Below are positions 2,914 to 40,853 of a DNA stretch of 64,000 nt, piece by piece. The notes beneath the pieces are model-generated. The model was not told the origin of the DNA. It saw nothing but the letters and a program-made list of their open reading frames with translations, and did no database searches. Numbering within the stretch: position 1 is the first letter of the stretch; every line of letters starts with the position of its first letter. The position numbers and the translations under genes were made by a program. This DNA comes from Pristiophorus japonicus (Eukaryota): contig NC_091979.1 in NCBI RefSeq assembly GCF_044704955.1, positions 189,472,001-189,536,000 on the forward strand, given 5' to 3'.

Positions 2914-4166
2914 GGGCCCAAGTTTCCACATAATTTGCGCCTGATTTTTTAGGAGCAACTGGTGGAGAACGGACTATCTTAGAAATCGCAATTCTCCACA
3001 TTTTTTTTTCTGCAGTTCTAGTCAGGTAGAACAGTTCCGCTTTGGAACAGAATTTTTTCTTAAAAAGGGGGCGTGTCCGGCCACTGACGCCTGATTTCAA
3101 AGTTTCCACAGTGAAAATGTACTCCAAACTAACTTAGAATGGAGCAAGTGAAGATTTTTGTAGAACTGAAAAAACCTGTTCTACACATTAAAAAATCAGG
3201 CGCAGGTTACAAATTAGGCGTCCAGAACGAGGTAGGGGGGAGGAGGGGAAGGGAAGTCATTAAATTCTACAATAAATCCTTATTTATACTTATACAAATA
3301 TTATACAAATAAATCCAACCTGAATAAACATTTATAAGCAAAGAAAAGATTAAATAAACCATCTTCCTACCTGTGTGAAAGTTCTTCAGGCAGGCCTTTC
3401 GGGACCGAAGGCTGAACGGGCCGGCCCGAGACTTCAGACAGGGCCCGTCCCCAGCACCAGATTTACAGGTAGGTGGCGTTGGGTCGGGTCGGGTCGGGGG
3501 AGGGAGGGAGAGAGAGAGAGAGAGGGGGAGAGAGAGGGAGGTCAGGTCGGATCCAGTCCGGGAGCGGGGGAGCACGAGTCGAGTCGGGTCCAGTCGGGGG
3601 GGGGGGGGTGGGGAGAGCGGGAGCAGGAGCGCGGGTCGGGTCCAGTCAGGGGGGGGGGGGGGGGGGGGGGGGAGCGGAGCGGAGCGGGAGTCGGGGGAGG
3701 GGGTCGGGGGAAGAGCAGGAATCGGGTCGGGTCCAGTCCGGGGGGGCGGGGAGCGGGTGCCGGGTCCGGTCCGGAGGGGGGGGGGGGGGGGGCGCGGTGT
3801 CGGGTCTGGTCGGGCGGGGAGCAGGAGCTGGTCGTGGGAGGAGCCTTATTCACGCAGCCCCAGTGAGGCCATTGGGCCAGGGCTAGGGGCTGCGTGCTTC
3901 GGGCCCCTCCCACAGTGTTTCGGACGCCTGGAGCTACTGCACTTGCGTGCCCACTGTAGCGCGCATGTGCAGAGGTCCCGGCACTGTTTTCAGCGCAGGG
4001 ACCTGGCTCCGCCCCCCCACAGCTCGTGCTGCGCTGCGCCGAGGGCCAGAGGAACTGCAGGGAGGTGGAGAATACCGAGGATTTTTTTAGGCGCACTTTG
4101 TGGCGCGAAAAACGGGCGTCCAGGTCGGGACTGCGCCGTTCTAGGCACGTGTGGAAACTTGGGCCC
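2914..4166. mobile_element. PIF/Harbinger-type non-autonomous element (MITE), family A copy 1
   Basis: Perfect 17-bp TIR gggcccaagtttccaca / tgtggaaacttgggccc; first ~470 bp nearly identical to 30522-30990; G-rich core; no clean TSD (gta/atg). Confidence 0.88.
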
Positions 4167-9190: not shown

Positions 9191-12074
9191 CTTAAATAGT
9201 TCGAATAGATCTTCTGGGATAGACTTCGGTTTGGACAGAATTTACCTAATTTATATTTAGCTAACCTATTTGAATGTTGAGAGTTTCAGGATGCCACTGT
9301 TCTAATCGTAAAATATACTGCAGGCAGAGTTTAAAAAAAAACAAATAGCACACCCTATCCAAGTTGTTTCACAGAAATTCCATCACTGCATTTGTATTTA
9401 CAGTGCTACAGGTAATGTACTTCAACCCCACCAAAATAGCGCAAAATGGAATTTAAAAAATACATTTCAAGAAGTGATCTGACTTCAAGTTAGTTATCTT
9501 ATACAGGTAACTTCATACATCATACTAATATGCATCTCATTATTAATGACAAATATCAATGCCTAAAGGCTTGAAAGTGGACTGCCTGGTGCAGCTATCA
9601 ATGTAAATAGTCTTTCACATCTTCACTTGCAGAAACCCGTTACTTGGAACCTCATTTGTTACCTTTTAATAAAAACCACATGCTCTTGTGTTGCTTTATT
9701 TGTCTTCTAACATTGGTTATTCTGAAGTCTGATTTCTGAAGGGCTGACAGCCTTATCAAATATTTTTCTGCCCTTTAATGAAGTGCCCAAGGCAATGCGC
9801 CAATTCATGTGGAAATATGCTTGAAATACATGGCTGTGTGTAGAGGGCACCACCAGCCCCTGGCAGAGATAAATCACTTACACCAGAATGTGATTAATAG
9901 CAGGCTGCTCCTCACGAATACAAACAACCAACGATATGCACAGATGCAGGTTGCCCTGTTCGCAAATATACAAAGTCTTTTCTTTCTCTAACATTTATTT
10001 TAATTTGGAAAAGGTTTGTAAATGGCTGTTATACAATTCCCATTTTTGAACTAATATTAAAAAGAGGACAAGCAGATGACACAGACATTTTCAGCAGTTC
10101 CTGACTGGGCGATTAGGTGGCACATCTAAGCATGCCTTCAGGGTGACAAGACGTATCTGTGAAAACGTTTATAGGTTGTATAGATCTGTTAGCCTGAGTG
10201 AGGATACAGTCACCACAAAGAGCTGACTGCAGTATGGAGTTGGGGAGGGGGGAGGGACAAAAGGAGAAAGGGAAAAGAAAAATGTATCTAACAAATGACA
10301 ATTATAAATAGAATGCTAAACTTAATGTATTTTTAATGTATTTTAGCTAGGGCTTACAGCAGCAAGTTTTCAAATGCTCCTTTTGGGATTTTTATCAATT
10401 CCCCTTTGAATGCCACACATCTCCAAGTGATACAATGGTTTACTGTCTCCAGTTCTGCAAAGATTGAAGTCCATTATGTACATTTAAGCACAGCATTTAT
10501 AATTCTTCAACTAAAACTTAAGTCTATCATCAATATATCAATGTGTGAAGGATTTCATTTTTGGGTTTCTCTGTCGAGACATCACACAACTTCCCCCGTT
10601 CTCACAAAGGTGCATGGTTCTGGCAATGGTGATGAAGTCCTGAAGGAATATAGGAGCCACTTCACAGGATTTAAAAAAATTATAGTCATGTGCAAGGTAT
10701 CAGCATCGGTGTTCGTCATGGCACACAAGGTCACACTGCACTTGCAAATATATAACATTTACTCAAAGGTAGTAATCTCTGGATTATTCCCGGTGCCACG
10801 TGCGAGTGAGTATAGAAATAGGAGGATAGAGCAGATGAATGTGTGGCTGGAGAGATGATGCAGGAGGGAGGGCTTCAGATTCCTGGGGCATAGGGGCCTG
10901 CACCTCAACGGAGCTGATGCAAACCTCCTCGTGAGGATATTGGTAAGTGCTGTCGGGGAGGGTTTAAACTAAATTGGCAAGGGGATGGACACCAGGATGT
11001 AGCATTAGAAAGGAGAAACACAGGGCACAAAGGATTGGGAGAGACGGATAGCACTAAAGCAAGAAACAGTAAGGTATTAGGTGAGGTCAGATTGAGAGCG
11101 AACACAGGATGGTCGAAGATAGGTTTACAGTGTATGTGTGTGAATGCATAAAGCATAGTAAGCAAGGTTGGTGAGCTGCAGGCACAAACAGCCATATGGA
11201 ATTTGATGTTGTGGCAATAACAGAGACCTGGCTCAAAAAATAGCAGGATTAGGTATTAAATATTCCTGGATATAGGGTGTTCAGGGAAGGAATGATAGGA
11301 GGTGGTGTGACAGTATTGGTTAAGGAGAATGCGACAGTGTTGGAGAGAGAGGATGTCCTGGAGGGGGCAAAACCAGAATCTATGGGGGCAGGTTTCCACA
11401 GGAATTGATCCTATTTTTTTGGAGCAACTAGTTTTTTTTGGAGTATCTTAAAAATCGCAATTCTCCACATTCAGTTCAAGTTTAGACAGCCAATAGTTAC
11501 TCCAAACTAACTTCGGTCAGCGTATGTGTCTACTTTTGTACACTCAGAAAAACCTTGCGGACACTTTAGAAATGAGGCGCAGGTAGCCAGAGATTGGGGG
11601 GGGGGGGGGGGAAGCTAGAGGATTTTCCAAACCACTAAACACCTTCACAATGACATTAAAGAAGCATAAGTACATTTAAAATACTAAGCACTAAACAAAG
11701 CACAAAAATTAGCATTCAATAACAAATAAAAAATACAAGGAAAGCAGCAAAACTTACAAAGCACAAAAAGTAATAAGCAAATAATTAACAAATAAAAAGT
11801 AGACAGAACCTAAAGCACCAAGACCAAAGTAATAAGCAATCAATAATAAACAACAAATAGAAGTCCTACCTTTATGTGAAGGGAAGGCAGCTGGCTGCCG
11901 ATGAGGGAGAGGGGGGAGGAGGGGAGAGTATGGAGGAGGGGAGAGTAGGGAGGAGGGGAGAAGGAGGGAGGGAGGGAGGAGGAGGGAGGGAGGGAGGAGG
12001 AGGAACGAGGGGGAGGGAAGGGGAGGGGGGAAAGGGGGAGGGGGGAGTAAGGGGGAGGAGGGAGGGGGGTGGTG

Positions 12075-13735
12075 GAGGGGGGTGGTAGAGGATGTGGAGG
12101 AGGGGGGTGGTAGAGGATGTGGAGGAGGGGGGTGGTGGAGGATGTGGTGGAGGGGGGTGGTAGAGGATGTGGAGGAGGGGGGTGGTAGAGGATGTGGAGG
12201 AGGGGGGTGGTGGAGGATGTGGAGGAGGGGGGTGGTGGAGGATGTGGTGGAGGGGGGTGGTAGAGGATGTGGAGGAGGGGGGTGGTAGAGGATGTGGAGG
12301 AGGGGGGTGGTGGAGGATGTGGAGGAGGGGGGTGGTGGAGGATGTGGAGGAGGGGGGTGGTGGAGGATGTGGAGGAGGGGGGTGGTGGAGGATGTGGAGG
12401 AGGGGGGTGGTGGAGGATGTGGAGGAGGGGGGTGGTGGAGGATGTGGAGGAGGGGGGTGGTGGAGGATGTGGAGGAGGGGGGTGGTGGAGGATGTGGAGG
12501 AGGGGGGTGGTGGAGGATGTGGAGGAGGGGGGTGGTGGAGGATGTGGAGGAGGGGGGTGGTGGAGGATGTGGAGGAAGGGGGTGGTGGAGGATGTGGAGG
12601 AGGGGGGTGGTGGAGGATGTGGAGGAGGGGGGTGGTGGAGGATGTGGAGGAGGGGGGTGGTGGAGGATGTGGAGGAGGGGGGTGGTGGAGGATGTGGAGG
12701 AGGGGGGTGGTGGAGGATGTGGAGGAGGGGGGTGGTGGAGGATGTGGAGGAGGGGGGTGGTGGAGGATGTGGAGGAGGGGGGTGGTGGAGGATGTGGAGG
12801 AGGGGGGTGGTGGAGGATGTGGAGGAGGGGGGTGGTGGAGGATGTGGAGGAGGGGGGTGGTGGAGGATGTGGAGGAGGGGGGTGGTGGAGGATGTGGAGG
12901 AGGGGGGTGGTGGAGGATGTGGAGGAGGGGGGTGGTGGAGGATGTGGAGGAGGGGGGTGGTGGAGGATGTGGAGGAGGGGGGTGGTGGAGGATGTGGAGG
13001 AGGGGGGTGGTGGAGGATGTGGAGGAGGGGGGTGGTGGAGGATGTGGAGGAGGGGGGTGGTGGAGGATGTGGAGGAGGGGGGTGGTGGAGGATGTGGAGG
13101 AGGGGGGTGGTGGAGGATGTGGAGGAGGGGGGTGGTGGAGGATGTGGAGGAGGGGGGTGGTGGAGGATGTGGAGGAGGGGGGTGGTGGAGGATGTGGAGG
13201 AGGGGGGTGGTGGAGGATGTGGAGGAGGGGGGTGGTGGAGGATGTGGAGGAGGGGGGTGGTGGAGGATGTGGAGGAGGGGGGTGGTGGAGGATGTGGAGG
13301 AGGGGGGTGGTGGAGGATGTGGAGGAGGGGGGTGGTGGAGGATGTGGAGGAGGGGGGTGGTGGAGGATGTGGAGGAGGGGGGTGGTGGAGGATGTGGAGG
13401 AGGGGGGTGGTGGAGGATGTGGAGGAGGGGGGTGGTGGAGGATGTGGAGGAGGGGGGTGGTGGAGGATGTGGAGGAGGGGGGTGGTGGAGGATGTGGAGG
13501 AGGGGGGTGGTGGAGGATGTGGAGGAGGGGGGTGGTGGAGGATGTGGAGGAGGGGGGTGGTGGAGGATGTGGAGGAGGGGGGTGGTGGAGGATGTGGAGG
13601 AGGGGGGTGGTGGAGGATGTGGAGGAGGGGGGTGGTGGAGGATGTGGAGGAGGGGGGTGGTGGAGGATGTGGAGGAGGGGGGTGGTGGAGGATGTGGAGG
13701 AGGGGGGTGGTGGAGGATGTGGAGGAGGGGGGGTG
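12075..13735 (+). repeat. 25-bp minisatellite (GGAGGATGTGGAGGAGGGGGGTGGT), about 66 copies
   Basis: Exact 25-bp periodicity; variants mostly in the first ~10 units. Confidence 0.97.
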
Positions 13736-13739
13736 GTGG

Positions 13740-13990
13740 AGGAGGAGGGGGGGAAAGAGAGGAGGAGGGGGGGAAAGAGAGGAGGAGGGGGGAAAGAGAG
13801 GAGGGGGAAAAGAGAGGAGGGGGGAAAGAGAGGAGGGGGGAAAGAGAGGAGGGGGGAAAGAGAGGAGGGGGGAAGAGAGGAGGGGGGAAAGAGAGGAGGG
13901 GGGAAAGAGAGGAGGGGGGGAAGAGAGGAGGGGGGGAAGAGAGGAGGGGGGGAAAGAGAGGAGGGGGGGAAGATGAGAGGGGGGGGGGGG
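13740..13990 (+). repeat. ~19-bp polypurine tandem repeat (GGGGGGAAAGAGAGGA-like)
   Basis: Repeated ggggggaaagagagga(gga) units, nearly pure G/A. Confidence 0.85.
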
Positions 13991-14184
13991 AGAGAAGAGA
14001 GGGGCGGGGGAGCGGAGTAGGGCGGGGGAGCGGAGGATGGAGCAACGTTAAACATATGAGCTTGCCCAGGTGGTCCCATCCTACTCACGTCTTGCCTCAA
14101 TCTCTTTGCTTTCCTGCTTCCCCAGCCCCCCACCCCCCCGAACATCTCCGAGACAGTCCCAAGGAACACTCGATGGCCTCAGGT

Positions 14185-14283
14185 ATCTTCCTTCTTGATG
14201 GTCACTTTTGGCAGCTCTTTCTCCCAATCTTGTTTGGCTTTCTGTTCCCACGATCTCCTGTCTCCGATGACGGACATTGCCGT
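14185..14283 (-). pseudogene. HYPK: Captured intronless fragment of huntingtin-interacting protein K
   Basis: TAMSVIGDRRSWEQKAKQDWEKELPKVTIKKED versus recalled human HYPK TAMSVIGDRRSREQKAKQEREKELAKVTIKKED (29/33); both R>W changes are CGG>TGG-type. Confidence 0.88.
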
Positions 14284-17200
14284 CTGTTCCCTCACAGGTT
14301 GCGGTGGGGAGCCCATTCGGCCATGGCTAGGAACGGCCTGCTTCGGGCACATCCTATAAAGCCTGGAGCATACACACATAGAATCTGGGGGTGAGGAGCT
14401 ACTGCACATGCGCGCACACTCTAGCGTGCATGTGCAGAGGTCCCGGCACTGTTTTCAGCGCCGGGACCTGGCTCCGCCCCCCACGCGTTCTCTAGTGCTG
14501 CGCCAGGGCCCTACATCGGTGCTGGTGCACCATTCTAACCATAGGTGCAAACTTGGGCCCTATATGGCGAGCGTTAAGAAATAGTCGAGGTGCCAATACA
14601 CTACTAGATGTATTCTATAGGCCACCAAATGGTGGGAAAAATATGGAGGAGCAAATTTGCAGAGAAATTACAGAGAGATGGAAGAACTATAGAGTAGTGA
14701 TAAAAGGGGACTTCAACTATCCTAATATAGACTGGGATAATAATAGTGTAAAGGGCAGCGAGGGGGAAGAATTTATGAAGTGTGATCAGTATGTATCCGG
14801 CCCAACGGGAAGGAGGCATTGCTGGATCTGGTTCTGAGGAATGAGGTAGGTCAAGTGGAGCAAGTGTCAGTAAGCGAACATAGTATCAGAAGGTTTAGAT
14901 TAGCTATGGAAAAGGACAGGGAGCAATCTGGAGTAAAATTACTTAATTGGAGGAAGGCAGATTTCAGTGGGATGAGAACGGATCTGGCCCGGATAAATTT
15001 GAATCAAAGATTGGCAGGCAAAATTGTAGTGGAACAATGGGCTGCCTTTAAAGAGGAAATAGTTTGGTGCAGTCGAAGTACATTCCCACTAAGGGGAAAG
15101 GTAGGGCAACCAAAGCTAGAGCTCCCTGGATGACGAAAGAGATAGAGTAAGATGAAGCAGAAAAAGAACACATATGACAGATGTCAGGCGAGAATACATC
15201 TGATGATCAGGCTAAATATAGGAAGTTCAGAGAAGTAAAAAAGCAAGAGCGGGGTATGAGAATAAAACGGCAGCTAGCATAAAAGGTAATCCAAAAGTCT
15301 TCCATAGGCATATAAATAGTAGATAGGTAGTAAGAGGAGAGGTGGGGTTGATTTTGGACCAAAAAGGAGACCTACGCACGGAGGCAGAGGGTATGGCTGA
15401 GGTACTAAATGAGTAATTGCATCGGTCTTCACAAAGGAAGATGCTGCCATAAACATAGTGAAGGAGATACTGGATGGGATAAGAATTGATAAAGACGAGG
15501 TACTCAAAAAGCTGGCTGGATTTAAAGTAGATAAGTCACCAAGACCGGATGGAATGCATCCTATGACGCTGAGGGAAGTGAAGGAAGAAATCACGGAGGT
15601 ACTGGCCATAACCTTCCAATCCTCCTTAGAAACAGGGGCGGTGCCAAAGGACTGGAAAATTGCAAATGTTAGTTACACTCTTGTTCAAAAAAAGGTATAA
15701 AAATAAACCCAGCAACTATAGGTCAGTCAATTTAACCTCGGTAGTAGGGAAGCTTTCAGAAACAATAATCAGGGATAAAATAAACAAACAGTCACTTGGA
15801 CAAGTGTGGGTTAATTAAGGAAAGCCAGCACAATTTGTTAAAGGCAAATGGTGTTTAACCAACTTAATCGAGTTTTTTGACGAGGGCAATGCGGTTGACA
15901 TGCTGTACATGAATTTCAAAAGGCGTTTGACAAAGTGTCATAATAGACTTACCAGCAAAGTTGAAGCCCATAGAATAAAAGGGACAGTGGCAGCATGGAT
16001 ACAAAATTAGCTAAGTGACAGGAAACAGAGAGTAGTGAACCGTTGTTTTTCGGACTGGAGGCAGGACCCCAGGGGTCAGTACTCGGACCATTGCATTTCT
16101 TGATATATATTAATGACTTGGATGAGGGTGTACAGGGCACAATTTCAAAATTTGCAGATGGCACAAAACTTTGAAATAGTGAACAGTGAGGAGGATAGTG
16201 AGGAAACTTCAAGGAGGACATAGACAGGCTGGTGGAATGAGCAGACACATGGCAGATGAAATTTAATGCAGAAAAGTGTGAAGTGATACATTTTGGTAGA
16301 AAGAATGAGGAGAGGAAATATAAACTAAAGGGTACAATCCGAAAGAGGAACAGAGAGACCTAGGGGTATATGTGCACAAATCGTTGAAGGTGGCAGTGCA
16401 GGTTGAGAAAGCAGTTTAAAAAGCACACGGAATCCTGGGTTTCATGAATAGAGATATAATAGTACAAAAGTCTGAAAATTATGATGAACCTGTATTAAAC
16501 ACTGGTTCGTCCTCAACTGGAGTTTTTTTTATCCAATTCTGGACACCGCACTTTAGGAAGGATGTGAAGGCCTTGGAGAGGGTGCAGCAAAGATTTACAA
16601 GAATTATTCCAGGGATGAGGTACTTCAGTTACATGGATAGACTGGAGAACCTAGGTTGTTCTCCTCGGAGCAGAGATAGGTGTTCAAAATCATGAGTCGT
16701 CGAGACAGAGCTGATAGAGAGAAACTGTTCCCATTGACAGAAGGGTCGAGGAAACAGAGGACACAGATTTAAGGTGAGTGGCAAAAGAACCAAGGCGACA
16801 TAAGAAAAACTTTTTTACACAGCGTGTGCTTAGGATCTGGAATGCACTGCCTGAAAGGGTGTCGGAGGCAGACTCGATCACAGCTTTCAAAAGGGAGTGG
16901 GATAAATACCTGAAAGAAAAATATTGCAGGGTTACGGGGAAAGGGTGGGACTAGCTGAGGTGCTTTTGCAGAGAGCTGGCATGGGCTCAAAGGGCCGAAT
17001 GGCCTTTTTCCATGCTGGAATCATTGTATGATGGTCAGACAAACATACTTTTTGCCAATAAATACATTTCATCAATATGAAGGAATCATAGTGTGAAGGG
17101 TTACACAGTATTCCCAATATACAAATACAGATATTTGCATATCATCAAACAACACGGCATACAACCTTTGGAGGAAGGTTGCAAAATCCAAAAAAGCTAG

Positions 17201-20200: not shown

Positions 20201-20826
20201 CAAAATAAGATTCCTACTTGGAACCCAGCTGAGATGGTGAAGTGCATTTTATTTCAACACCACTGAAGACTACTTCCATCTTGTCAAAAGGAAAAAATAT
20301 TCGAACCCACTGTATGACCCAATTTTTATTTCTTCTTTTCACTCCTCCAATTTTCCCTGAGTCCACTTCTCTCCGCTCTTGTAGACAATGACTGATCTTG
20401 GAGCTCAACAGCCCTCCAGGACCTAACAAAGCATCCATTTAAGTATGAGAATGGATGGACAGTAAGTGTTTTTTTCCAAGAGAGTCATCATAGCCAAGAG
20501 CAAGACTATAGTCACACATTCACTGATTATGGCTGCAAATATGATACTTGCAGTGTAGCTGATATTTATTTTCCACGGACTATGAACACATAAAACCTAC
20601 TGTAACACACCCACTGAATTGCAACACATACCCAAACTGAGTTTGGCCATTTTGGAACAGACCACAGATCACACTTAGGACTTTCTTGGTCTATGTCAAT
20701 CACAATCATACCACGCAGCTTATTGACCAATGAGCCTTTAGAACGCCATGTTTTTAAACTGTATTCTTTTACATTCCCCTTCTTCCTTACTTAATCTTTG
20801 AACAACAATTACATTGAAATCCTTTT

Positions 20827-23800
20827 ACATAGAAACATAGAAAATAGGTGCAGGAGTAGACCATTCGGCCCTACGAGCCTGCACCACCATTCAATAAGGT
20901 CATGGCTGATCATTCACTCAGTACCCCTTTCCTGCTTTCTCTTCATACCCCTTGATCCCCTTAGCCGTAAGGGCCATATCTCACTCCCTCTTGAATATAT
21001 CCAATGAACTGGCATCAACAACTCTCTGCGCAGGGAATTGCACAGATTAACAACCCTCTGAGTGAAGAAGTTTCTCCTCATCTCGGTCCTAAATGGCCTA
21101 CCCCTTATCCTTAGACTGTGTCCCCTGGTTCTGGACTTCCCAACATCGGGAACATTCTACACGGATCTAACCTGTCCAGTCCCATCAGAATCTTATATGT
21201 TTCTGTGTTATCCCCTCTCATCCATCTAAACTCCAATGTATAAAGGCCCAGATGATTCAGTTTATCCTCATATGTCAGTCCTGCCATCCACGGAATTAGC
21301 TTGGATGATGTGGAATCTATATGGGTAGAGCTGCAGAACACGAAAGGGCAAAAAACGTTAGTGGGAGTTGTGTACAGACCTCCAAACAGTAGTGATGTTG
21401 GGGAGGGCATCAAACAGGAAATTAGGGGTGCATGCAATAAGGGTGCAGCAGTTATAATGGGTGACTTTAATATGCACATAGATTGGGCTAACCAAACTGG
21501 TGGTGGAGGATTTCCTGGAGTGCATAAGGGATGGTTTTCTAGACCAATATGTCGAGGAACCAACTAGGGGGGAGGCCATCTTAGACTGGGTGTTGTGTAA
21601 TGAGAGAGGATTAATTAGCAATCTCGTTGTGCGAGGCCCCTTGGGGAAGAGTGACCATAATATGGTGGAATTCTGCATTAGGATGGAGAATGAAACAGTT
21701 AATTCAGAGACCATGGTCCAGAACTTAAAGAAGGGTAACTTTGAAGGTATGAGGCGTGAATTGGCTAGGATAGATTGACGAATGATACTTAAGGGGTCGA
21801 CTGTGGATGGGCAATGGCAGACATTTAGAGACCGCATGGATGAACTACAACAATTGTACATTCCTGTCTGGCGTAAAAATAAAAAAGGGAAGGTGGCTCA
21901 ACCGTGGCTATCAAGGGAAATCAGGGATAGTATTAAAGCCAAGGAAGTGGCATACAAATTGGCTAGAAATAGCAGCGAACCCGGAGACTGGGAGAAATTT
22001 AGAACTCAGCAGAGGAGGACAAAGGATTTGATTAGGGCAGGGAAAATGGAGTAAACATTTGCAGGAAACATTAAGACGGATTGCAAAAGTTTCTATAGAT
22101 ATGTAAAGAGAAAAAGGTTAGTAAAGACAAACGTAGGTCCCCTGCAGTCAGAATCAGGGGAAGTCATAACGGGGAACAAAGAAATGGCGGACCAATTGAA
22201 CAAGTACTTTGGTCACTAAGGAGGACACTAACAACCTTCCGGATATAAAAGGGGTCAGAGGGTCTAGTAAGGAGGAGGAACTGAGGGAAATCCTTATTAG
22301 TCGGGAAATTGTGTTGGGGAAATTGATGGGATTGAAGGCCGATAAATCCCCAGGGCCTGATGGACTGCATCCCAGAGTACTTAAGGAGGTAGCCTTGGAA
22401 ATAGCGGATGCATTGACAGTCATTTTCCAACATTCCATTGACTCTAGATCAGTTCCTATCGAGTGGAGGGTAGCCAATGTAACCCCACTTTTTAAAAAAA
22501 GGAGGGAGAGAGAAAACAGGGAATTATAGACCGGTCAGCCTGACATCGGTAGTGGGTAAGATGATGGAATCAATTATTAAGGATGTCATAGCAGCGCATT
22601 TGGAAAGAGGTGACATGATAGGTCCAAGTCAGCATGGATTTGTGAAAGGGAAATCATGCTTGACAAATCTTCTGGAATTTTTTGAGGATGTTTCCAGTGG
22701 AGTGGACAAGGGAGAACCATTTGATGTGGTATATTTGGACTTTCAGAAGGCTTTCGACAAGGTCCCACACAAGAGATTAATGTGCAAAGTTAAAGCACAT
22801 GGGATTGGGGGTAGTGTGCTGACATGGATTGAGAACATGGTTGTCAGACAGGAAGCAAAGAGTAGGAGTAAATGGGTACTTTTCAGAATGGCAGGCGGTG
22901 ACTAGTGGGGTACCGCAAGGTTCTGTGCTGGGGCCCCAGCTGTTTACACTGTACATTAATGATTTAGACGAGGGGATTAAATGTAGTATCTCCAAATTTG
23001 CGGACGACACTAAGTTGGGTGGCAGTGTGAGCTGTGAGGAGGATGCTATGAGGCTGCAGAGCGACTTGGATAGGTTAGGTGAGTGGGCAAATGCATGGCA
23101 GATGAAGTATAATGTGGATAAATGTGAGGTTATCCACTTTGGTGGTAAAAACAGAGAGACAGACTATTATCTGAATGGTGACAGATTAGGAAAAGGGGAG
23201 GTGCAACGAGACCTGGGTGTCATGGTACATCAGTCATTGAAGGTTGGCATGCAGGTACACAGCAGGCGGTTAAGAAAGCAAATGGCATGTTGGCCTTCCT
23301 AGTGAGAGGATTTGAGTACAGGGGCAGGGAGGTGTTGCTACATTTGTACAGGGCCTTGGTGAGGCCACACCTGGATTATTGTGTACAGTTTTGGTCTCCT
23401 AACCTGAGGAAGGACATTCTTGCTATTGAGGGAGTGCAGTGAAGGTTCACCAGACTGATTCCCGGGATGGCGGGACTGACCTATCAAGAAAGACTGGATC
23501 AACTGGGCTTGTATTCACTGGAGTTCAGAAGAATGAGAGGAGACCTCATAGAAACGTTTAAAATTCTGATATGTTTAGACAGGTTAGATGCAGGAAGAAT
23601 GTTCCCAATATTGGGGAAGTCCAGAACCAGGGGTCACAGTCTAAGGATAAGGGGTAAGCCATTTAGGACCGAGATGAGGAGAAACTTCTTCACCCAGAGA
23701 GTGGTGAACCTGTGGAATTCTCTACCACAGAAAGTTGTTGAGGCCAATTCACTAAATATATTCAAAAAGGAGTTAGATGAAGTCCTTACTACTAGGGGGA

Positions 23801-25905
23801 TCAAGGGGTATGGCGAGAAAGCAGGAATGGGGTACTGAAGTTGCATGTTCAGCCATGAACTCATTGAATGGCAGTGCCGGCTAGAAGGGCCGAATGGCCT
23901 ACTCCTGCACCTATTTTCTATGTTTCTATGAATCAGTCTGGTGAAATTTCGCTGCACTCCCTCAATAGCAAGAACGTCCTTCTTCAGATTAGGAGACCAA
24001 AACTGAACACAATATTCCAGATGAGGCCTCACTAAGGCCCTGTACAAATGTAGCAAGACCTTCATACTTCTATACTCAAATCCCCCAGCTATGAAGGCCA
24101 ACATACCATTTGCCTTCTTCACCGCCTGCTGTACCTACATGCCAGCTTTCAATGACTGATGAACCATGACACCCAGGTCTTGTTGCACCTCCCCTTTTCC
24201 TAATCTGCCACCATTCAGGTAATATTCTGCCTTTGTGTTTTTGCCCCCAAAATGGATAACCTCACATTTATCCACATTATACTGCATCTGCCATGCATTT
24301 GCCCACTCACCTAACCTGTCCAAGTCACCCTGCAGCTTCTTAGCGTCCTCCTCACAGCTCACACCGCCACCCAGTTTAGTGTCATCTGCAAACTTGGAGA
24401 TATTACACTCAATTCCTTTATCTAAATCGTTAATGTATATTGTAAAGAGCTGGGGTCCCAGCAATGAGCCCTGCGGCACTCCACTAGTCACTGCCTGCCA
24501 TTCTGGAAAGGATCCGTTTATCCCGACTCTCTGCTTCCTCTCTATCCACATCAGTATATTATCCCCAATACCATGCGCTTTGATTTTGCACACCAATCTC
24601 TTGTGCGGGACCTTGTCAAAAGCCTTTTGAAAGTCCAAATACACCACATCCACTGGTTCTCCCTTGCCTACTATACTGGTTACATCCTCAAAAAATTCCA
24701 GAAGATTCGTCAAGCATGATTTCCCTTTCATAAATCCATGCTGACTTGGACCGATCCTGTCACTGCTTTCCAAATGCGCTGCTATTTCATCCTTAATGAT
24801 TGATTCCAACATTTTCCCCACTATTGATGTCAGGCGAACCGGTCTATAATTACCCGTTTTCTCTCTCCCTCCTTTTTTAAAAAGTGGGATTACATTAGCT
24901 TCCCTCCAGTCCATAGGAACTGATCCACAGTCGACAGACTGTTGGAAAATGATCACCAATGCATCCACTATTTCTAGGGCCACTTCCTTAAGTACTCTGG
25001 GATGCAGACTATCAGGCCCCGGGGATTTATCGGCCTTCAATCCCATCAATGTCCCTAACACAATTTCCCGCCTAATAAGGATATCCTTCAGTTCCTCCTT
25101 CTCACTAGACCCACTGTCCCCTAGTACATTCGGAAGGTTATTTGTGTCTTCACTCGTGAAGTATTTGTTCAATTGGTCTGCCATTTCTTTGCTCCCCATT
25201 ATAGATTCACCTGAATCCGACTGCAAGGGACCTACGTTTGTCTTCACTAATTTTTTCTCTTCACATATTTATAGAAGCTTTTGCAGTCAGTTTTTATGTT
25301 CCCTGCAAGCTTCCTCTCGTACTCTATTTTCCCCCTCTTAATTAAACCCTTAGTCCTCCTCTGTTGAATTTTAAATTTCTCCCAGTCCTCAGGTTTGTTG
25401 CTTTTTCTAGCCAATTTATATGCCTCTTCCTTGGTTTTAACACTATCCTTAATTTCCCTTGTTAGCCACGGTTGAGCCACCTTCCCAGTTTTATTTTTAC
25501 TCCAGACAGTGATGTACAATTGCTAAAGTTCATCCGTATGATCATTAAATGTTAGCCATTGCTTATTTACCGTCAACCCTTTAAGTATCCTTTGCCAGTC
25601 TATTCTAGCCAATTCATGCCTCATACCGTCAAAGTTACCTTTCATTAAGTTCAGGATCCTAATTTCCGAATTAACTGTGTCACTCTCCATCTTAATAAAG
25701 AATTCTACCATATTATGGTCACTCTTCCTCAAGGGGCCTCGCACAACAAGATTGCTAATTAGTCTCTTCTCATTACACATCACCCAGTCTAGGATGGCCA
25801 GCTCTAGTTGGTTCCTCGACATATTGATCAAAAAAACCATCCCTAATACACTCCAGGAAATTCTCCTCCACCGCATTACTACCAGTTTGGTTAGCCCAAT
25901 CAATA
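20827..25905 (-). mobile_element. CR1 LINE (EN-RT ORF2, AGAAACAT-type tail), interrupted by 21298-23929
   Basis: Tail at 20827; ORF 24135..25247 with YLDFQKAFDKV and KFADD; sequence resumes at gaatcagtctggtg (23930). Confidence 0.93.
21298..23929 (+). mobile_element. CR1 LINE, 5'-truncated, inserted antisense into another CR1
   Basis: VYRPPN, GDFN, SDHN, KFADD, tttctatgtttctat tail; GAAT flanks both ends. Confidence 0.94.
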
Positions 25906-27075
25906 TTCCAGGTGAGGCCTCACCAAGACCCTGTACAACTGCAGTAAGACCTCCCTGCTCCTATACTTAAATCCCCTAGCTATGAAGGCCAACATACCAT
26001 TTGCCTTCTTCACCGCCTGCTGTACCTGTATGCCAACTTTCAACGACTAATGAACCATGACACCCAGTTCTCGTTGCACCTGCCCTTTTCCTAATCTGCT
26101 GCCATTCAGATAATATTCTGTCTTCGTGTTTGTGCCCCCAAAGTGGATAACCTCACATTTATCCATATTATACTGCATCTGCCATTCATTTGTCCAAGTC
26201 ACCCTGCAACCTCCTAGAGTCTCCCTCACAGCTCACACCGCCACCCAGTTTAGTGTCATCTGCAAACTTGGAGATATTACACTCAATTCCTTCATCCAAA
26301 TCATTGATATATATTGTATAGTGCTGGGGTCCTAGCACGGAGCCTTGCGGCACTCCACTAGTCATCTGAAAAGATCCCGTTTATCCCGACTCTCTGCTTC
26401 CTGTCTGCCAACCAGTTTCTCTGTCCACATCAGTATTTTACCCCCAATACCATGTGCTTTGATTTTGCACACCAATCTCTTGTGTGGGACCTTGTCAAAA
26501 GCTTTTTGAAAGTCCCAATACACCACATTCACTGGTTCTCCCTTGTCCACTCTACTCGTTACATCCTCAAAAAATTCCAGAAGATTTGTCAAGCATGATT
26601 TCCCCTTCATAAATCCATGCTGAGTTGGACCGATCCTGTCATTGCTTTCTAAATGTGTTGCTATTTCATCCTTAATAATTGATGCCATCATTTTCCCCAC
26701 TACTGATGTCAAGCTAACCGGTCAAAAATTACCCGCTTTCTCTCTCCCTCCCTTTTTAAAAAGTAGGGTTACATTAGCTACCCTCCAGTCCATAGGAACT
26801 GATCCAGAGTCAATAGACTGTTTGAAAATGATCACCAATGCATCCACTATTTCTAGGGCCACTTCCTTAAGTACTCTGGGATGCAGACTATCAGGCCCCG
26901 GGGATTTATCGGCCTTCAATCCCATCAATGTCCCTAACACAATTTCCCGCCTAATAAGGATATCCTTCAGTTCCTCCTCACGAGACCCACTGTCCCCCTA
27001 GTACTTCCGGAAGGTTATTTGTGTCTTCCTTCGTGAAGACAGAACCAAAGTATTTGTTCAATTGCTCTGCCATTT
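25902..27075 (-). mobile_element. CR1 RT fragment lacking its 3' end
   Basis: ORFs 26362..26712 and 26722..26940 carry CR1 RT motifs. Confidence 0.9.
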
Positions 27076-27769
27076 TAGCAAAGCATGGATGGCAAGTGTA
27101 ATTGAAATGTTGATTTTGTAAACTGTAACAACGATGTCAGAGCAATGTCTTAGCTGCAATTTGCAAAGTAAAAGCCTCCCTCCATCCTTCAACAGCAGGA
27201 TCTGAAATGCAGATGCTAACAATTTGGTGAAGTAGTTCTAGGATGTCTCAGTTTGTAAGCTGACACTGAAGGTAATGCTGTTGCAGACACAACCAGCCGT
27301 AACTAAAAAAAAAAGATGCTTCCCAGAAGGTAGATTTAAGTTGGCAAATTAAAACTTTTAAAAGATACAAAATGAAATGGGGAGGGAGTTCTCACCCAGT
27401 ACAGTAAACCTTTTACCAGGTTTGAATTTGCAAATTCAGGCCATGGGATAGGTGCATGTGTGTATCTACATGCTCAGCTGAAGAGTAGAGCAATGCACTC
27501 TTAAAGTACTCTTTGTATTTTGTAATTAACATAAGTCAAAGACTGAAGTTTATTCTGCCTAGTGAGGCCCATCGCTCCAATAATCTTAGCATCAACTTGT
27601 TTTTTTTGAATATCCCTAATGATTTACTCATTACTCGCCTGCTGGGCAGATTCTAAAAACATTTATCACTGAGTAAAGACATTATTCCACATCAGTTCTG
27701 AATTTCTTTCGCCAATTTCACAAAACTTATCCAGGACACCAAGGATAGTACCTTCTCCAACAGTCATCA

Positions 27770-30521: not shown

Positions 30522-31583
30522 GGGCCCAAGTTTCCACATGATTTGCGCCAGATTTTTTAGGAGCAACTGGTGGAGAACAGATTATCTTAGAAATCGCAAT
30601 TCTCCACATTTTTTTTCTGCAGTTCTAGTCAGGTAGAACAGTTCCGCTTTGGAACAGAATTTTTTCTTCAAAAGGGGGCGTGTCCGGCCACTGACGCCTG
30701 ATTTCAAAGTTTCCACAGTGAAAACGTACTCCAAACTAAAGTAGAATGGAGCAAGTGAAGATTTTTGTAGAACTGAAAAAACCTGTTCTACACATTAAAA
30801 AATCAGGCGCAGGTTACAAATTAGGCGTCCAGAACGAGGTGGGGGGGGGGGGGGGGGGAGGGGAACTCATTAAATTCTACAATAAATCCTTATTTATACT
30901 TCTACAAATATTATACAAATAAATCCAACCTGAAGAAACATTTATAAACAACGAAAAGGTTAAATAAACCATCTTCCTACCTGTGTGAAAGTGCTTCAGG
31001 CACGGAGAATTCTGTAGTCAGCCTGAGGCGTCCGTTCTTCCCGAGTGGGGAAGAGAAGAGGCGCCCGTTCTGCCCGCAGGGGGGGGGGGGGGGGGTCTCC
31101 CATTCTTTCCCGCGAGGGGAGGGGAGAGGCGCCCGTTCTGCCCGCGGGGGGGGGGGAAAGAGAGAGGCGCCCGTTCTTTCCCGGGGGGGGGGGAGAAAGA
31201 GAGGAGGAGACAGTGAGAAGGCTACAAGTGCTGATGGCAATGTGCTTTTATTAAAATAATGTTCAAAAATTAAACAGCTACAAAGAACTACAAAAATGGC
31301 CGAGTGCCAATGTTTTTTTCACACTGAGCATGCGCGAACGCTCCAACGCACACGCGCAGCGTTGCCGGCAGGAAAAAAACTAATTTAAATAGTACCCGCC
31401 CCCTCCCACTTACAAAATCGACGCAAGTGTAGGCTCCGCCCCCTGGGCGCCGCGCCAGGCAAACAAGGAGCTGCAGAACGCTCCAGAATCGCGATTTTCT
31501 TTTTTAGGCGCCGTTTTAGGCGCGAAAAACGGGCGCTCAGCTCGGAGGGGCGCCCGTTTTTTATCGTGTGGAAACTTGGGCCC
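30522..31583. mobile_element. Harbinger-type MITE, family A copy
   Basis: TIR gggcccaagtttccaca / tgtggaaacttgggccc; flanks taa/tat; left arm nearly identical to 2914-3380. Confidence 0.9.
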
Positions 31584-34900: not shown

Positions 34901-35250
34901 GAACTCCAAATTTAAGTATTACATCAGCTACATTTCAACATTTTGGGCATAAATATTTTCCTGCTTGTTGAATACTCTCCTAGAAAGTGACATCGCTGGA
35001 AATTCTGCCATTAAGTAAAATATTCAAATGCTTCACCAGAATTGTTGTAGCATGCATCAGACTATGGAAAACCTAATTTTCCCTCTGGTAACCCTTTCCA
35101 GAAGTCTTTCCCATGTTTCCAAGCACCAATGGGATGAAGCACCTTGGTCTTACATTACCTAATGCAAAAAACAAAAACAGAAGAGGGGTGTAACTTAAGT
35201 TTACAACTGACCAGAACATTGCTAGTGGTAGGACAAAACCATGACTGTGT

Positions 35251-38200
35251 CACAGAAACATAGAAAATAGGTGCAGGAGTAGGCCATTTGGCCCTTCGAG
35301 CCTGCACCACCAAGCAATATGATCATGGCTGATCAGATCATGCAACTTCAGTACCCCATTCCTGCTTTCTCTCCATACTCCTTGATCCCTTTAGCCGTAA
35401 GGGCCACATCGAACTCCCTTTTCAATATATCTAACGAACTGGCCTCAACAACTTTCTGTGGTAGAGAATTCCACAGGTTCACAATTCTCTGGGTGAAGAA
35501 GTTTCTCCTCATCAGTCCGAAATGGCTTACCACTCATCTTTAGACGGTGACCCCTGGTTCTGGACTTTCCCAACATCAGGAACATTCTTCCTGCATCTAA
35601 CCTGTCCAATCCCATCAGAATTTTATATGTTTCAATGAGATTCTCTCTCATTCTTCTAAATTCCAGTGAATATAAGCCAAGTCGACCCAGACTTTCTTCA
35701 TATGTCAGTCCTGCCATCCCGGGAATCAGTCTGGTGAATCTTTGCTGCACTCCCTCAATAGCAAGAAATTCCTTCCTCAGATTAGGAGACCAAAGCTTTA
35801 CACAATATTCAAGGTGAGGCCTCACCAAGGCCCTGTGCAACTGCAGTATGACCTCCCTGCTCCTATACTTAAATCCTCTCGCTATGAAGGCCAACATGCC
35901 ATTTGCCTTCTTCACTGCCTGCTGTACCTGCATGCCAACTTTCAAAGACTGATGTACCATGACACCCAGGTCTTGTTGCACCTCCCCTTTTCTTAATCGG
36001 TCACCATTCAGATAATATTCTGCCTTCCTGTTTTTGCCACCAAAGTGGATAACCTCACATTCCAAAGGGCAGAAAACGCTAGTGGGAGTTGTGTATAGAC
36101 CACCAAATAGTAGTAGTGAGGTTGGGGACAGCATCAAACAAGAAATAAGGGATGTGTGCAATAAAGGTACAGCAGTAATCATGGGCAACTTTAATCTACA
36201 TGTTGATTGGGCTAACCTAACTGGTAGCAATGCGGTGGAGGAGAATTTCCTGGAGTGTATTAGGGATGGTTTTCTGGACCAATATGTCGATGAACCAACC
36301 TGAGAACTGGCCATCCTAGACTGGGTGATGTGTAATGAGAAGGGACTAATTAGCAATCTTCTTGTGCGAGGCCCCTTGGGGAAAAGTGACCATAATATGG
36401 TAGAATTCCTTATTAAGATGGAGGGTGACAAAGTTAATTCGGAAACTAGGGTCTTGAACTTAAGGAAAGCTAACTTCGACGTTATGAGACGTGAATTGGC
36501 TAGAATAGACTGGCAAAGGATACTCAAAGGGTTGACGGTGGATCAGCAGTGGCAAACATTTAAAGATCACATGGATGAACTTTAGCAATTGTTCATCCCT
36601 GTCTGGAGTAAAAATAAAATGGGGAAGGTGGCTCAACCCTGGCTAACAAGGGAAATTAAGGATCGTGTTAAAACCAAGGAAGAGGCATATAAATTGGCTA
36701 GAAAAAGCAACAAACCTGAGGACTGGGAGAAATATAGAATTCAAAAGAGGAGGACTAAGGGTTTAATTAGGAGGGGGAAAATAGAGTATGAGAGGAAGCT
36801 TGCTAAGAACATAAAAACTGACTGCAAAAGATTCTATAAATATGGGAAGAGAAAAAGATTAGTAAAGACAACGTAGATCCCTTGCAGTCGGATTCAGGTG
36901 AATTTATAATGGGGAACAAAGAAATGGCAGACCAATTGAACCAATACTTCGGTTCCGTCTTCACAAAGGAAGATACAAATAACCTTCCGAAGGTACTAGG
37001 GGACAGTGAGTCTAGTGAGAAGGAGGAACTGAAGGATATCCTTATTAGGCGGGAAATTGATGGGATTGAAGTCTGATAAATCCCCGGATCCTGATAGTCT
37101 GCATCCCAGAGTACTCAAGGAAGTGGCCCTAGAAATAGTGGGTGCATTGGTAATCATTTTCCAACAGTCTGTCGACTTTGGATCAGTTCCGATGGACTGG
37201 AGGGTAGCTAATGTAACACCACTTTTTTTAAAAAGGAGGGAGAGAAAACGTGTAATTATAGACCTGACATCAGTAGTGGGGAAAATGTTGGAATCAATCA
37301 TTAAGGATGAAATAGCAGCGCATTTGGAAAGCAGTGACAGGATCGGACCAAATCAGCATGGATTTATGAAGGGGAAATCATGCTTGACGAATCTTCTGGA
37401 ATTTTCTGAGGATGCAACTAGCAGAGTGGACAAGGGAGAACCAGTAGATGTGGTGTATTTGGACTTTCAAAAGGCTTTTGACAAGGTCCCGCACAAGAGA
37501 TTGGTGTGCAAAATCAAAGCACATGATATTGGGGCTAATATACTGACGTGGATAGGGAACTGGTTGGCAGACAGGAAGCAGAGAGTCGGGATAAACGGGT
37601 CCTTTTCAGAATGGCAGGCAGTGACTCGTGGAGTGCCACGGGGCTGAGTGCCGGGACCCCAGCTCTTTACAATGTACATTAATGGTATCGAAGAAGGAAG
37701 AGAGCGTAATATCTCTAAGTTTGCAGATGACACTAAACTGGGTGGCGGTGTGAGCTGTGAGGAGGATGCTAAGAGGCTGCAGGGTGACTTGGATAGATTA
37801 AGTGAGTGGGCAAATACATGGCAGATGCAGTATAATGTGGATAAATGTGAGGTTATCCATTTTGGGGGCAAAAACACAAAGACAGAATATTATCTGAATG
37901 GCAGCAGATTAGGAAAAGGGGAAGTGCAACGAGACCTGGGTGTCATGGTTCATCAGTCACTGAAAGTGGGCATGCAGGTACAGCAGGCGGTAAAGGCAGC
38001 CAATGGTATGTTGGCCTTCATAGCTAGGGTATTTGAATATAGAAGCAGGGAGGTCTTAATGCAGCTGTACAGGGCCTTAGTGAGGCCTCATCTGGAATAT
38101 TGTGTTCAGTTTTGGTCTCCTAGTCTGAGGAAGGACGCTCTTGCTATTGAGGGAGTGCAGCGAAGGTTCACCAGACTGATTTAAGGGATGGCTGGGCTGT

Positions 38201-40853
38201 CATATGAGGAGAGACTGGATCAACAGGGCCTTTATTCACTGGCGTTTAGAAGGATAAGAGGGGATCTCATAGAAAAGTACAAGATTCTGATGGGACTGGA
38301 CAGGATAGATGCAGGAAGAATGTTCACGATGTTGGGGACATAGTCTTAGGATAAGGGGAAGGCCATTTAGGACTGAGATGAGGAGAAACTTCTTCACTCA
38401 GAGTTGTTAACCTGTGGAATTCCCTGCCACAGAGTTGTTGATGCCAGTTCACTGGTTATATTCAAGAGGGAGTTAGATATGGCCCTTACGGTTAAGGTGA
38501 TCAAGGGGTATGGAGAGAAAGCAAGAAAGGGGTATTGAAGGAATGATCAGCCATGATCTTATTGAATGGTGGTGAAGGCTCGAAGGGCTGAATGGCCTAC
38601 TCCAGCACCTATTTTCTATGTTTCTATGTTATCTACATCATACTGCATCTGCCATGCATTTGCCCACTCACCTAACCTGCCAAGTCACCCTGCAACCTCT
38701 TAGCATCCTCCTCACAGCTCACACTGCCACCCAGCTTAGTGACATCTGCAAACTTGGAGATATTGCATTCAATTCCTTTGTCTAAATCATTAATGTATAT
38801 TGTAAATAGGAGTCCCAGCACTGAACCTGCTAGTCACTGACTGCCATTTGAAAAGGACCCGTTTATTCCTACTCTTTGCTTACTGTCTGCCAACCAGTTC
38901 TCTATCCACATCAATACATTACCCCCAATACCATGTGCACACTAATCTCTTGTATGGGACCTTGTCAAAAGCCTTTTGAAAGTCCAAATACACCACATCC
39001 ACTGCTTCTCCCTTGTCCACTCTACCAGTTACATCCTCAAAAAATTCTAGAAGATTTGTCAAGCATGATTTCCCTTTCATAAATCCATGCTGACTTGGAC
39101 TGATCCTGTCACTGCTTTCCAAATGCGCTGCTATTACATCTTTAATAATTGATTCCAACATTTTCTCCACTACTGAGGTCAGGCTAACTGGTCTATAATT
39201 CCCGGTTTTCTCTCTCCCTCCTTTTTTAAAAGTGGAGTTACATTAGCTACCCTCAGTCCATAGGAACTGATCCAGAGTCTATAGAATGTTGGAAAATGAC
39301 ACCAATGCATCCACTATTTCTCGGGCCACTTCCTTTAGTACTCTGAGATGCAGACTATCAGGCCCTGGGGATTTATCGGCCTTCAATCCCATCAATTTCC
39401 CTAGCACAATTTCCTGACTAATAAGGATTACCTTCAGTTCCTCCTTCTCACTAGACCCTCGGTCCCCTAATATTTCCGGAAGGTTATTTGTGTCTTCCTT
39501 AGTGAAGACAGAACCAAGTATTTGTTCAATTGGTCTGCCATTTCTTTGTTCCCCATTATAAATTCACCTGATTCTATCTTCACTAATCTTTTTCTCTTCA
39601 CATATCTATAGAAGCTTTTGCAGTCAGTTTTTATGTTCCCTACAAGTTTACTCTCATACTCTATTTTCCCCCTCTTAATTAAACCCTTTGTGCTCCTCTG
39701 CTGAAGTCTGAATTTCTCCCAGTCCTCAGGTTTTCTACTTTTTCTGGCCAATTTATATGCCTCTTCCTTGGATTTAACACTATCCCTAATTTCCCTTGTT
39801 AGCCACGGTTGAGCCACCTTCCCAGTTTTATTTTTATACCAGACAGGGATGTACAATTTTTGAAGTTCATCCATGTGATCCTTAAATGTCTGCCATTGTC
39901 TATCCACCGTCAACCCTTTAAGTATCATTCGCCAGTCTATCCTAGCCAATTCAAGTCTCATACCATCGAAGTTACCTTTCTTTAACCTCAGGACCCTAAT
40001 CTCTGAATTAACTATGTCACTCTCCAATCTTAATGAAGAATTCTACCATATTATGGTCACTCTTCCCTAAGGAGCCTCGCACAACAAACCGCTAATTAAT
40101 CCTCTCTCATTACACAACACCCAGTCTCGGATGGCCAGCTCGCTAGTTGGTTCCTTGACATATTGGTCTCGAAAACCATCCCTTGTACACGCCAGGATAT
40201 CCTCCTCCACCGTATTGCTACCAGTTTGGTTAGCCCAATCTATATGTAGATTAAAGTCACCCATGATAACTGCTGTAACTTTATTGCACGCATCCCTAAT
40301 TTCCTGTTTGATACCACCCCCAACCTCACTACTACTGTTTGGTGGTCTGTACACAACTCCCACTAGCGTTTTCTGCCCTTTGGTATTCCGCAGCTCTACC
40401 CATACAGATTCCACATCATCCAAGCTAATGTCCTTTCTTACTATTGCGTTAATCTCCTCTTTAACCAGCAACTCTACCCCACCTCCTATTCCTTTCTGTC
40501 TAATCCTTCCTGAATACTGAATACCCCTGGATGTTGAGTTCCCAGCCATGGTCACCCTGGAGCCATGTCTCCGTAATCCCAATTCCATCATATTCGTTAA
40601 CAGCTATCTGCGCAGTTAATTCATCCACCTTATTATGAATGCTCCTCTCATTGAGACACAGAGCCTTCAGGCTTGTTTTTTTAACACTCTTTGTCCTTTT
40701 AGAATTATGTTGTAATGTGGCACTTTTTGATTTTTGCCTTTGATCTCTCTGCCCTCCACTTTTCCTTATCTCCTCTCCACCCTTTGCTTCTGCCCCCATT
40801 TTACTTCCCTCTGTCTCCCTGCATAGATTCCCATTCCCTGCCATATTAGTTTG
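35251..40853 (-). mobile_element. CR1 LINE with near-complete ORF2, interrupted by 36061-38628
   Basis: Tail at 35251; break at gataacctcacat|(insert)|ttatctacat; EN start LKALCLNERSIHNK near 40600-40670. Confidence 0.93.
36061..38628 (+). mobile_element. CR1 LINE, 5'-truncated, inserted antisense into another CR1
   Basis: VYRPPN, SDHN, YLDFQKAFDKV, KFADD, ttctatgtttctatg tail. Confidence 0.94.

Follow-up and report, generated by a model that had tools for sequence, protein, structure and literature searches.

Structure of the element and its cargo

We analyzed a 64,000-nucleotide stretch (the window) of the Pristiophorus japonicus genome (contig NC_091979.1, positions 189,472,001 to 189,536,000 of the forward strand), in which a transposable element at window positions 11384-14560 carries a fragment of the gene HYPK. 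This 3177-bp element belongs to a Pack-type non-autonomous Harbinger family whose serial, RNA-derived, multi-gene cargo is present in hundreds of copies. Its terminal inverted repeats (TIRs) are imperfect (12 of the first 16 nt match), TAT is found at both flanks, and excision of the element plus one TAT restores a flanking open reading frame, presumably CR1-like, across the empty site. The TIRs and the TAT target-site duplication (TSD) proposed in an earlier reading made without database searches (the sequence-only reading) are thus supported. The bulk of the 3.2-kb element is a G-rich 25-bp tandem array. Two sister elements in the window (2914-4166 and 30522-31583) share ends but not cargo with it and, as had been noted, lack HYPK; the 3-bp flanks of each are non-identical (GTA/ATG and TAA/TAT, respectively).

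The segment 14185-14283 (-) encodes 33 aa, of which 29 are identical to the primate HYPK record P0020, the same count as in the sequence-only reading. A PDB search with this piece retrieved human HYPK (6c95_D) at E=7.7e-12. One of the 29 identities, a T, is an element-side change, the host gene and two ray proteins having I. Searching with Pfam for the UBA domain of HYPK gave 81 matches among 119 candidates; a partial match among them pointed to the host gene, at C21:65729740-65734140 (-). The gene has four exons, a 118-aa frame, and three GT-AG introns of about 1.0, 1.2, and 1.5 kb, so an intronless host HYPK gene was rejected as a source. The sequence-only reading had placed introns of mammalian HYPK near T|AM and R|EK; the host gene has one at T|AM and another that splits the R codon (ER|EK), both within the stretch carried by the window element, and the cargo lacks them, the removal being exact. 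In a DNA contig of another organism, HYPK exons 2 and 3 are ~840 nt apart. The proposal that a cut-and-paste element holds host cargo derived from spliced mRNA is therefore borne out by intron-free junctions in multiple, TIR-flanked copies.

The family TIR is present at all 20 UBA loci inspected. Most contain exons 2-4 preceded by ~60 nt from the end of exon 1, together with the 3' untranslated region (UTR), AATAAA, and an A-tract of short length. For the 5' part of exon 1, the host gene is the sole match (1/1 candidate). Among 33 long copies, the three exon junctions are intact in 32, 32, and 33, respectively. Of the 30 short copies (the window type), 27 have the first junction and 30 the second, while none has the third, which is deleted. 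The exon 3-exon 4 join of the window type is a ~100-nt internal deletion common to the subfamily. In the longer subfamily, the 3' UTR, polyadenylation (polyA) signal, and A-tract are retained, and part of RPS13 comes next; deletion from this longer, polyA-bearing cargo gave rise to the window copy. Its subfamily is also a mosaic, since the spacer next to the HYPK exon 1 remnant (Table 1) is common to an RPS13-only subfamily.

Codon 94 of the host gene is P, while element copies and an electric-ray HYPK protein have S; the element thus keeps the older state. By eye, the UniRef 'HYPK-like' record P0039 (Pristiophorus japonicus) corresponds to the element-borne frame of locus L031 over ~90 aa, which means that copies of the element are being treated as genes in public annotation.

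Table 1. Positions of the window element, its parts, and its two sister elements.
Feature	Position	Strand	Remark
Target-site duplication TAT	11381..11383	.	Basis: flank identity, empty-site frame restored
TIR-bearing element end	11384..11880	+	Homology, at 73-81% identity in pieces, with the end of autonomous Harbingers that lies on the transposase side
Purine tract with 25-bp tandem array	11881..14042	+	G = 1452/2160 nt
HYPK stop codon and start of 3' UTR (exon 4)	14043..14184	-	
HYPK exon 3, first 40 nt	14185..14224	-	
HYPK exon 2 (56 nt)	14225..14280	-	Intron-free joins at both sides
HYPK exon 1, last 5 nt	14281..14285	-	Exon 1/2 junction
Spacer	14286..14308	-	Common to RPS13-only subfamily
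GC-rich TIR-bearing element end	14309..14560	-	GC box and arm motif bordering the cargo slot
Target-site duplication TAT	14561..14563	.	
Related non-autonomous element without HYPK	2914..4166	+	Interior GC-rich low-complexity; one end 96% identical to a transposase-bearing element
Internal-deletion derivative of autonomous element, without HYPK	30522..31583	+	Both ends 86-95% identical to L272

Through the sister copies, the GC-rich end matches the end upstream of the Myb gene of autonomous elements, which suggests that it may act as a promoter. Its arm motif (14309-14325) resembles at 13-14/15 nt a 3' tail found 10 times in 154 kb, that of an abundant repeat which we take to be a long or short interspersed nuclear element (LINE/SINE). 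Elsewhere in the window (20800-27100, 35200-40600, and 42100-53900), nested repeats bearing reverse transcriptase, presumably CR1-like, are dense in both orientations.

Copy number, dispersal, and decay

The HYPK cargo of the window has 348 candidates genome-wide, and all 40 that were scored match at 90% or more over nearly the full length. A 28-nt pattern spanning the HYPK exon 2/3 junction gave 254 genome matches with up to two mismatches, while the reversed control gave none. At least 254 spliced copies is a lower bound, the window copy itself being too diverged at the junction to be counted. At least one element arm is present in 30/30 of the first exact junction matches inspected, and both arms in 26/30. 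A single retrocopy inside one element is rejected by these matches.

Two-ended copies of all types span 0.8-3.1 kb, and 53 of 146 have identical 3-bp flanks (shuffle mean, 10.6; maximum, 21). The sequence-only reading had suggested checking whether cargo was amplified with the element; the multi-copy cargo with varied flanks shows that it was. That reading had also named three outcomes that would speak against it, namely, no significant HYPK hit, a host gene without introns here, and a single copy with its own TSD or polyA. What was found is a significant match, introns in the host gene, and a multi-copy cargo with no TSD of its own. First-look searches with other cargos (described below) gave 320 candidates for an RPS13 piece, 286 for a PDCD4-like one, and 169, 156, and 125 for three more, numbers that are not copy numbers. 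We estimate that the HYPK, RPS13, and PDCD4-like cargos are each present in hundreds of copies. Because copies are dispersed with TIRs and varied TSDs, amplification would have proceeded by cut-and-paste, with proteins of autonomous relatives acting in trans.

Divergence from the column majority outside CpG has a median of 2.9% per copy, in copy sets biased to well-kept copies. Transitions at CpG in the HYPK cargo copies are increased fivefold (15% vs 2.8%). The CGG>TGG changes in the window had been ascribed to decay under methylation, and CpG decay is indeed seen at the family level, but the two R>W changes are one CGG>TGG and one AGG>TGG. The ratio of nonsynonymous to synonymous changes (pN/pS) gives no sign of selection on the HYPK cargo in either type (0.93 for the long type; 1.60 for the short type, with only 10 synonymous changes). 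The cargo is a passenger undergoing neutral decay, with function nowhere indicated.

Other contents of the cargo slot

Next to the slot lies a 25-nt arm motif, for which the genome has 1151 exact matches (control, 0). Of these, we read 90 on C1, namely, the first 30 in the list and 60 of the 70 after them. The slot interior is GC-rich low-complexity sequence in 49, short or empty in 12, and foreign sequence in 29. The foreign cargo is of 13 kinds, six of them found in at least two copies; the screen for different cargo genes that the sequence-only reading had called for was thus productive, and beyond that reading, HYPK appears to have displaced part of an earlier spliced RPS13 cargo in a family that holds many others. 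In most subfamilies, cargos terminate at the pyrimidine strand of a purine tract like that of the window element.

The HYPK A-tract is immediately followed by a frame that matches ribosomal protein uS15/RPS13 at 37/37 aa. Long copies of RPS13-only elements cross two exon junctions and are spliced; other forms have a deletion between two CAAGA words or consist of the 3' half to just past AATAAA. In the long HYPK type, HYPK substitutes for ~100 nt of RPS13-type interior, with 2-nt overlaps at both joins and no duplication. Since this type has the shortened RPS13 end and nearly the same arms as the shortened-RPS13 type, HYPK replaced ~100 nt of the latter. The commonest foreign cargo in the sample contains an MA3 domain (PDCD4-like; parent gene on C4). 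It consists of 74+140+123 nt of three exons, spliced and fused to an RPS13 remnant; it starts mid-exon and ends in the 3' UTR before the first AATAAA, with no polyA. The best Ribosomal_S15 match in the genome, L119 (C20:19680407-19680640 (-)), is apparently intronless with no TIR found nearby; by likeness we take it to be a mitochondrial-type S15 stretch.

Not all fillers are spliced. Cargo E is a contiguous, unspliced genomic stretch (90% over 399 nt to the element-free locus L202), cargo X1 includes, by eye, an apparent splice donor and intron, and the interior of L158 contains ~600 nt of mitochondrial ND2-like sequence in antisense, found in one copy. Parent loci were found for HYPK, RPS13, PDCD4-like, and cargo E, none of them flanked by the element. 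No parent was found for X1 (27/40 scored matches inspected) or X5 (14/40), all inspected matches being element copies; X4 and the single cargos were not searched. No Pfam match was obtained for 82/85 frames from ten cargos.

Arm-end direct repeats border several cargos, and some copies have mosaic arms. Tandem cassettes composed of a cargo, an arm-end repeat, and a second cargo occur in L222, L092/L098/L101, L167, and L212, and on this showing elements accumulate modules. An intermediate copy, L379, combines a long 5' part with an internal deletion. In an arm tree, copies cluster by cargo (21 changes vs a shuffled mean of 57.6), though the tree is unrooted, contains at most 9 copies per group, has unsettled bootstrap support, and includes an 'X3' label mixing two cargo types. 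The arms of L017, L228, and L291 group with a cargo subfamily other than that of their own cargo, pointing to exchange between copies. A cargo-free variant has an 11-nt match to the HYPK cargo start and groups with the window type; the match may be a relic of cargo loss rather than capture microhomology. No RNA dataset with this sequence was among the sequencing runs listed. In organism A, two sequencing runs of unrecorded type cover arm and cargo, with no listed piece spanning the whole stretch, while in DNA contigs of organisms D and I the arm was not covered, which is not proof of its absence there.

Autonomous relatives

The family is non-autonomous PIF/Harbinger. A PF13359 (DDE_Tnp_4) search returned 89,386 candidates in the 5.9-Gb genome, of which 150 were scored, and 11 of 30 transposase loci fetched align to the window element end. 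Eight loci that were extended proved to be 4.3-5.1-kb elements with the same TIR core, five of them with identical 3-bp flanks. These autonomous elements have a ~405-aa DDE frame (PF13359, E=5e-40), and a Myb/SANT domain (PF13873, E=1.6e-10) is encoded on the strand opposite the transposase in L279, the only element for which the right frame was tested. The window itself contains, at 62873-63364 (-), what remains of a Harbinger transposase frame, recognized by likeness to the frames of L274/L275.

The sequence-only reading had called the window element a Harbinger MITE (a miniature inverted-repeat transposable element). TIRs, TSD, transposase, and Myb uphold the Harbinger part but not the MITE part; Tourist-like MITEs are below ~600 bp, and the family, at 1.1-2.5 kb, and the window element, which its G-rich 25-bp tandem array brings to 3177 bp, are large for one. 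The TIR match is ~13-16 bp here, shorter than the usual Harbinger range of 25-50 bp (PMC9179366), as it also is in the autonomous copies. The same source gives Harbingers as undetected in elephant shark (PMC9179366). The Harbinger expansion observed here is very abundant, large, and fairly young, several fetched elements having long open transposase frames, and it may bear on genome size.

Origin of the cargo

The cargo being spliced, an RNA step is implied in its origin. We think it probable that the slot gained pieces of host mRNAs when breaks were patched with reverse-transcribed RNA, transposase and Myb proteins then amplifying the patched elements in trans. The first cargo would have been spliced RPS13, from codon ~31 to just past its AATAAA, later shortened through a microhomology deletion. 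A 5'-truncated, polyadenylated HYPK complementary DNA (cDNA) would then have taken the place of ~100 nt of RPS13 with no TSD, and a further deletion would have removed the UBA part. The window type may have arisen by exchange with an RPS13-type copy plus a 3' deletion, its 5' spacer being of RPS13-type origin, and a spliced PDCD4-like piece would have joined the same RPS13 remnant separately. Gap repair after excision might stall at the purine/pyrimidine tract and then switch to other copies, to genomic or mitochondrial sequence, or to cDNA made by a retrotransposon reverse transcriptase acting in trans.

We favor break repair because HYPK has no TSD, its capture cost ~100 nt of target, and both joins have 2-nt overlaps; because the PDCD4-like piece is cut at both ends and has no polyA; because genomic (L202) and ND2-like fillers occupy the same slot; and because the arm-end direct repeats and mosaic arms fit template switching. 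The pattern of spliced, doubly truncated pieces with microhomology and neither polyA nor TSD fits the PDCD4-like cargo and partly HYPK, though the present joins may postdate capture.

Several of these features speak against the main rival, L1-type target-primed retrotransposition, in which processed pseudogenes would have been placed in elements, deletions would have erased TSDs and most tails, and transposition would have amplified the carriers, a route shown for bat Helitrons. Besides the absence of a TSD, the HYPK target is not a T-rich consensus site, the PDCD4-like and RPS13 cargos lack polyA, the three spliced cargos share a single GC-rich slot and are not in the AT-rich arm, and the slot also accepts fillers that are not mRNA. 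Precise intron loss, as in processed pseudogenes, the A-tract at the HYPK cleavage site, and the 5' truncation of HYPK are nevertheless what such insertion would leave; the 89,386 transposase candidates would be a huge target, and later deletions are frequent in the family. The genome also contains L091 (C11:~165727500-165728050), a processed pseudogene of RPS13 that is young and full-length, has polyA and a TSD of ~11 bp, and shares 98% identity with the gene, so L1-type retroposition was recently active. In view of the A-tract of the longer HYPK form, a retrocopy that landed in an element and was then amplified is conceivable; overall, we consider L1-type insertion unlikely, if not negligibly so.

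Unspliced cargo E and the apparent intron of X1 fit capture at the DNA level, in which gap repair would have copied pieces of pre-existing retrocopies from elsewhere, in Pack-MULE/Pack-TIR style, and a free RPS13 retrocopy exists (L091). L091 was rejected as the RPS13 donor, since it has two private changes absent in element copies and is nearer to the gene than element copies are to one another (the RPS13 exon model being off by a few bases at two boundaries, only sites away from these were used). The only match to the 5' part of HYPK exon 1 is the gene, element sequence is found at all 30 junction copies and all 20 UBA-domain copies inspected, and 30 PDCD4-like loci yielded only the gene exon with intron flanks. 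A donor might be short or have been lost, yet we regard this route as improbable for the spliced cargo.

The fixed slot and its sense orientation could also be accounted for if an element transcript recruited a LINE reverse transcriptase that switched between element RNA and mRNAs, the chimeric cDNA then converting an existing copy. Every nested cargo is in sense orientation, the slot comes after the end that in autonomous elements is upstream of the Myb gene and that keeps a GC box, and the arm motif is like the abundant repeat tail at 13-14/15 nt. That likeness is short and may be fortuitous, and the ND2-like cargo is antisense; we give the model very little credence.

A number of observations weigh against repair of breaks with cDNA or against parts of the history built on it. 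HYPK ends in an A-tract ~20 nt past AATAAA, which is typical of L1-type insertion primed at polyA, and this genome produces ordinary retrocopies that have polyA and a TSD (L091). Microhomology deletions are common in the family, so that cargo TSDs and tails could have been erased later. Spliced cargos are in one orientation in 3/3 cases, which are too few to decide, while in the accessible part of one study L1 insertions at Cas9 breaks have balanced orientation (PMC9237045). The ND2-like and several other cargos were found once each and may be later single-copy insertions. Perfect TSDs are seen in only 53 of the 146 two-ended copies, the source genes of X1 and X5 were not located, and the arm tree has the limits given above. 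The exact autonomous partner of the cargo-bearing subfamilies was not found among the eight extended elements, to whose ends these subfamilies are only 73-81% identical.

A more far-reaching version of the break-repair reading is that the element has a built-in capture slot, where repair after excision, at the purine/pyrimidine tract, would draw again and again on germline RNA and join sense pieces of different mRNAs behind an element promoter, the chimeras then spreading by cut-and-paste. We put it forward tentatively, as possible rather than probable.

Comparison with known systems

The closest parallels, as described in the available portions of the papers cited, each share some features of the shark family. 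Fungal hAT elements of Pseudocercospora carry a spliced histone H3 copy in 784 copies (PMC6710886). Like the shark family, they are TIR cut-and-paste elements with an intron-free copy of a housekeeping gene in hundreds of decaying copies; unlike it, they are ~9.5-kb, transposase-bearing hAT elements with one gene. The shark family is vertebrate, non-autonomous Harbinger, with at least three mRNAs in serial chimeras, other fillers, and readable junctions. Bat Helitrons also amplify retrogenes, four nested ones being present in 118 copies (PMC4224331). They too are vertebrate DNA transposons that amplify 5'-truncated mRNA copies captured sequentially, but they are rolling-circle elements and the four retrogenes keep polyA, TSD, and empty counterparts, whereas the shark cargo resides in a TIR element, lacks a TSD, and is associated with target deletion.

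A survey of animal Pack-TIRs lists 370 cases, mostly single-copy and near the parent, with four multicopy families in frog and alligator (PMC8277862). By design, it discarded intronless captures of multi-exon genes, and its accessible text makes no mention of Harbinger. Pack-TIRs and Ssk-FB4 resemble the shark family in that TIRs enclose host sequence, microhomology occurs at junctions, the models proposed involve gap filling or template switching, and amplification takes place as pseudo-transposable elements. Of the features that define Pack-TIRs, host sequence between TIRs and a parent unflanked by the element are found here; capture at the DNA level is not a feature of the three spliced shark cargos, while contiguous cargo E would fit it. 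Among Harbinger/PIF elements with captured gene pieces, Turmoil-1 of C. elegans keeps an rsp-2 intron, indicating DNA-level capture, and has nine listed copies (PMC2572040), and the portion of the maize Pack-PIF paper at hand leaves introns, cDNA, and retro-origin unmentioned (PMC8903248). Two close captures in these systems suggested a hotspot; Turmoil-1 differs from the shark family in its retained intron and few copies.

Junction features of the kind found here are described for Cas9 breaks in mouse zygotes whose repair is mediated by reverse transcription products (PMC4516963). There, spliced, doubly truncated mRNA pieces with no polyA or TSD are joined through short microhomology, with multiple inserts per break, but the breaks are experimental, the events single, and no amplification follows. 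A search of the open literature found no report of this family or of spliced capture, serial or otherwise, in a vertebrate TIR element, Repbase, subscription papers, and supplements being outside its scope. The sequence-only reading had called cDNA-type cargo in a shark Harbinger family unusual; this stands for vertebrate TIR elements but not in general, given the fungal precedent (PMC6710886).

Significance

Captures in the largest animal Pack-TIR survey are, in the part of it available, mostly single-copy and DNA-derived, spliced ones having been filtered out (PMC8277862), and the shark family contrasts with them. Because its nested cargos can be read along with their intermediates and parent genes, the route by which a TIR element captures host sequence can be tested by a sequence census, and the same census would bear on whether RNA templates serve natural germline break repair. 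Annotation is affected as well, since an element-borne HYPK copy stands as a public 'HYPK-like' protein record. If true, the built-in RNA-sampling slot would make this family a vertebrate equivalent, acting via RNA, of plant Pack-MULEs, and this one genome would contain thousands of its cargo-bearing copies.

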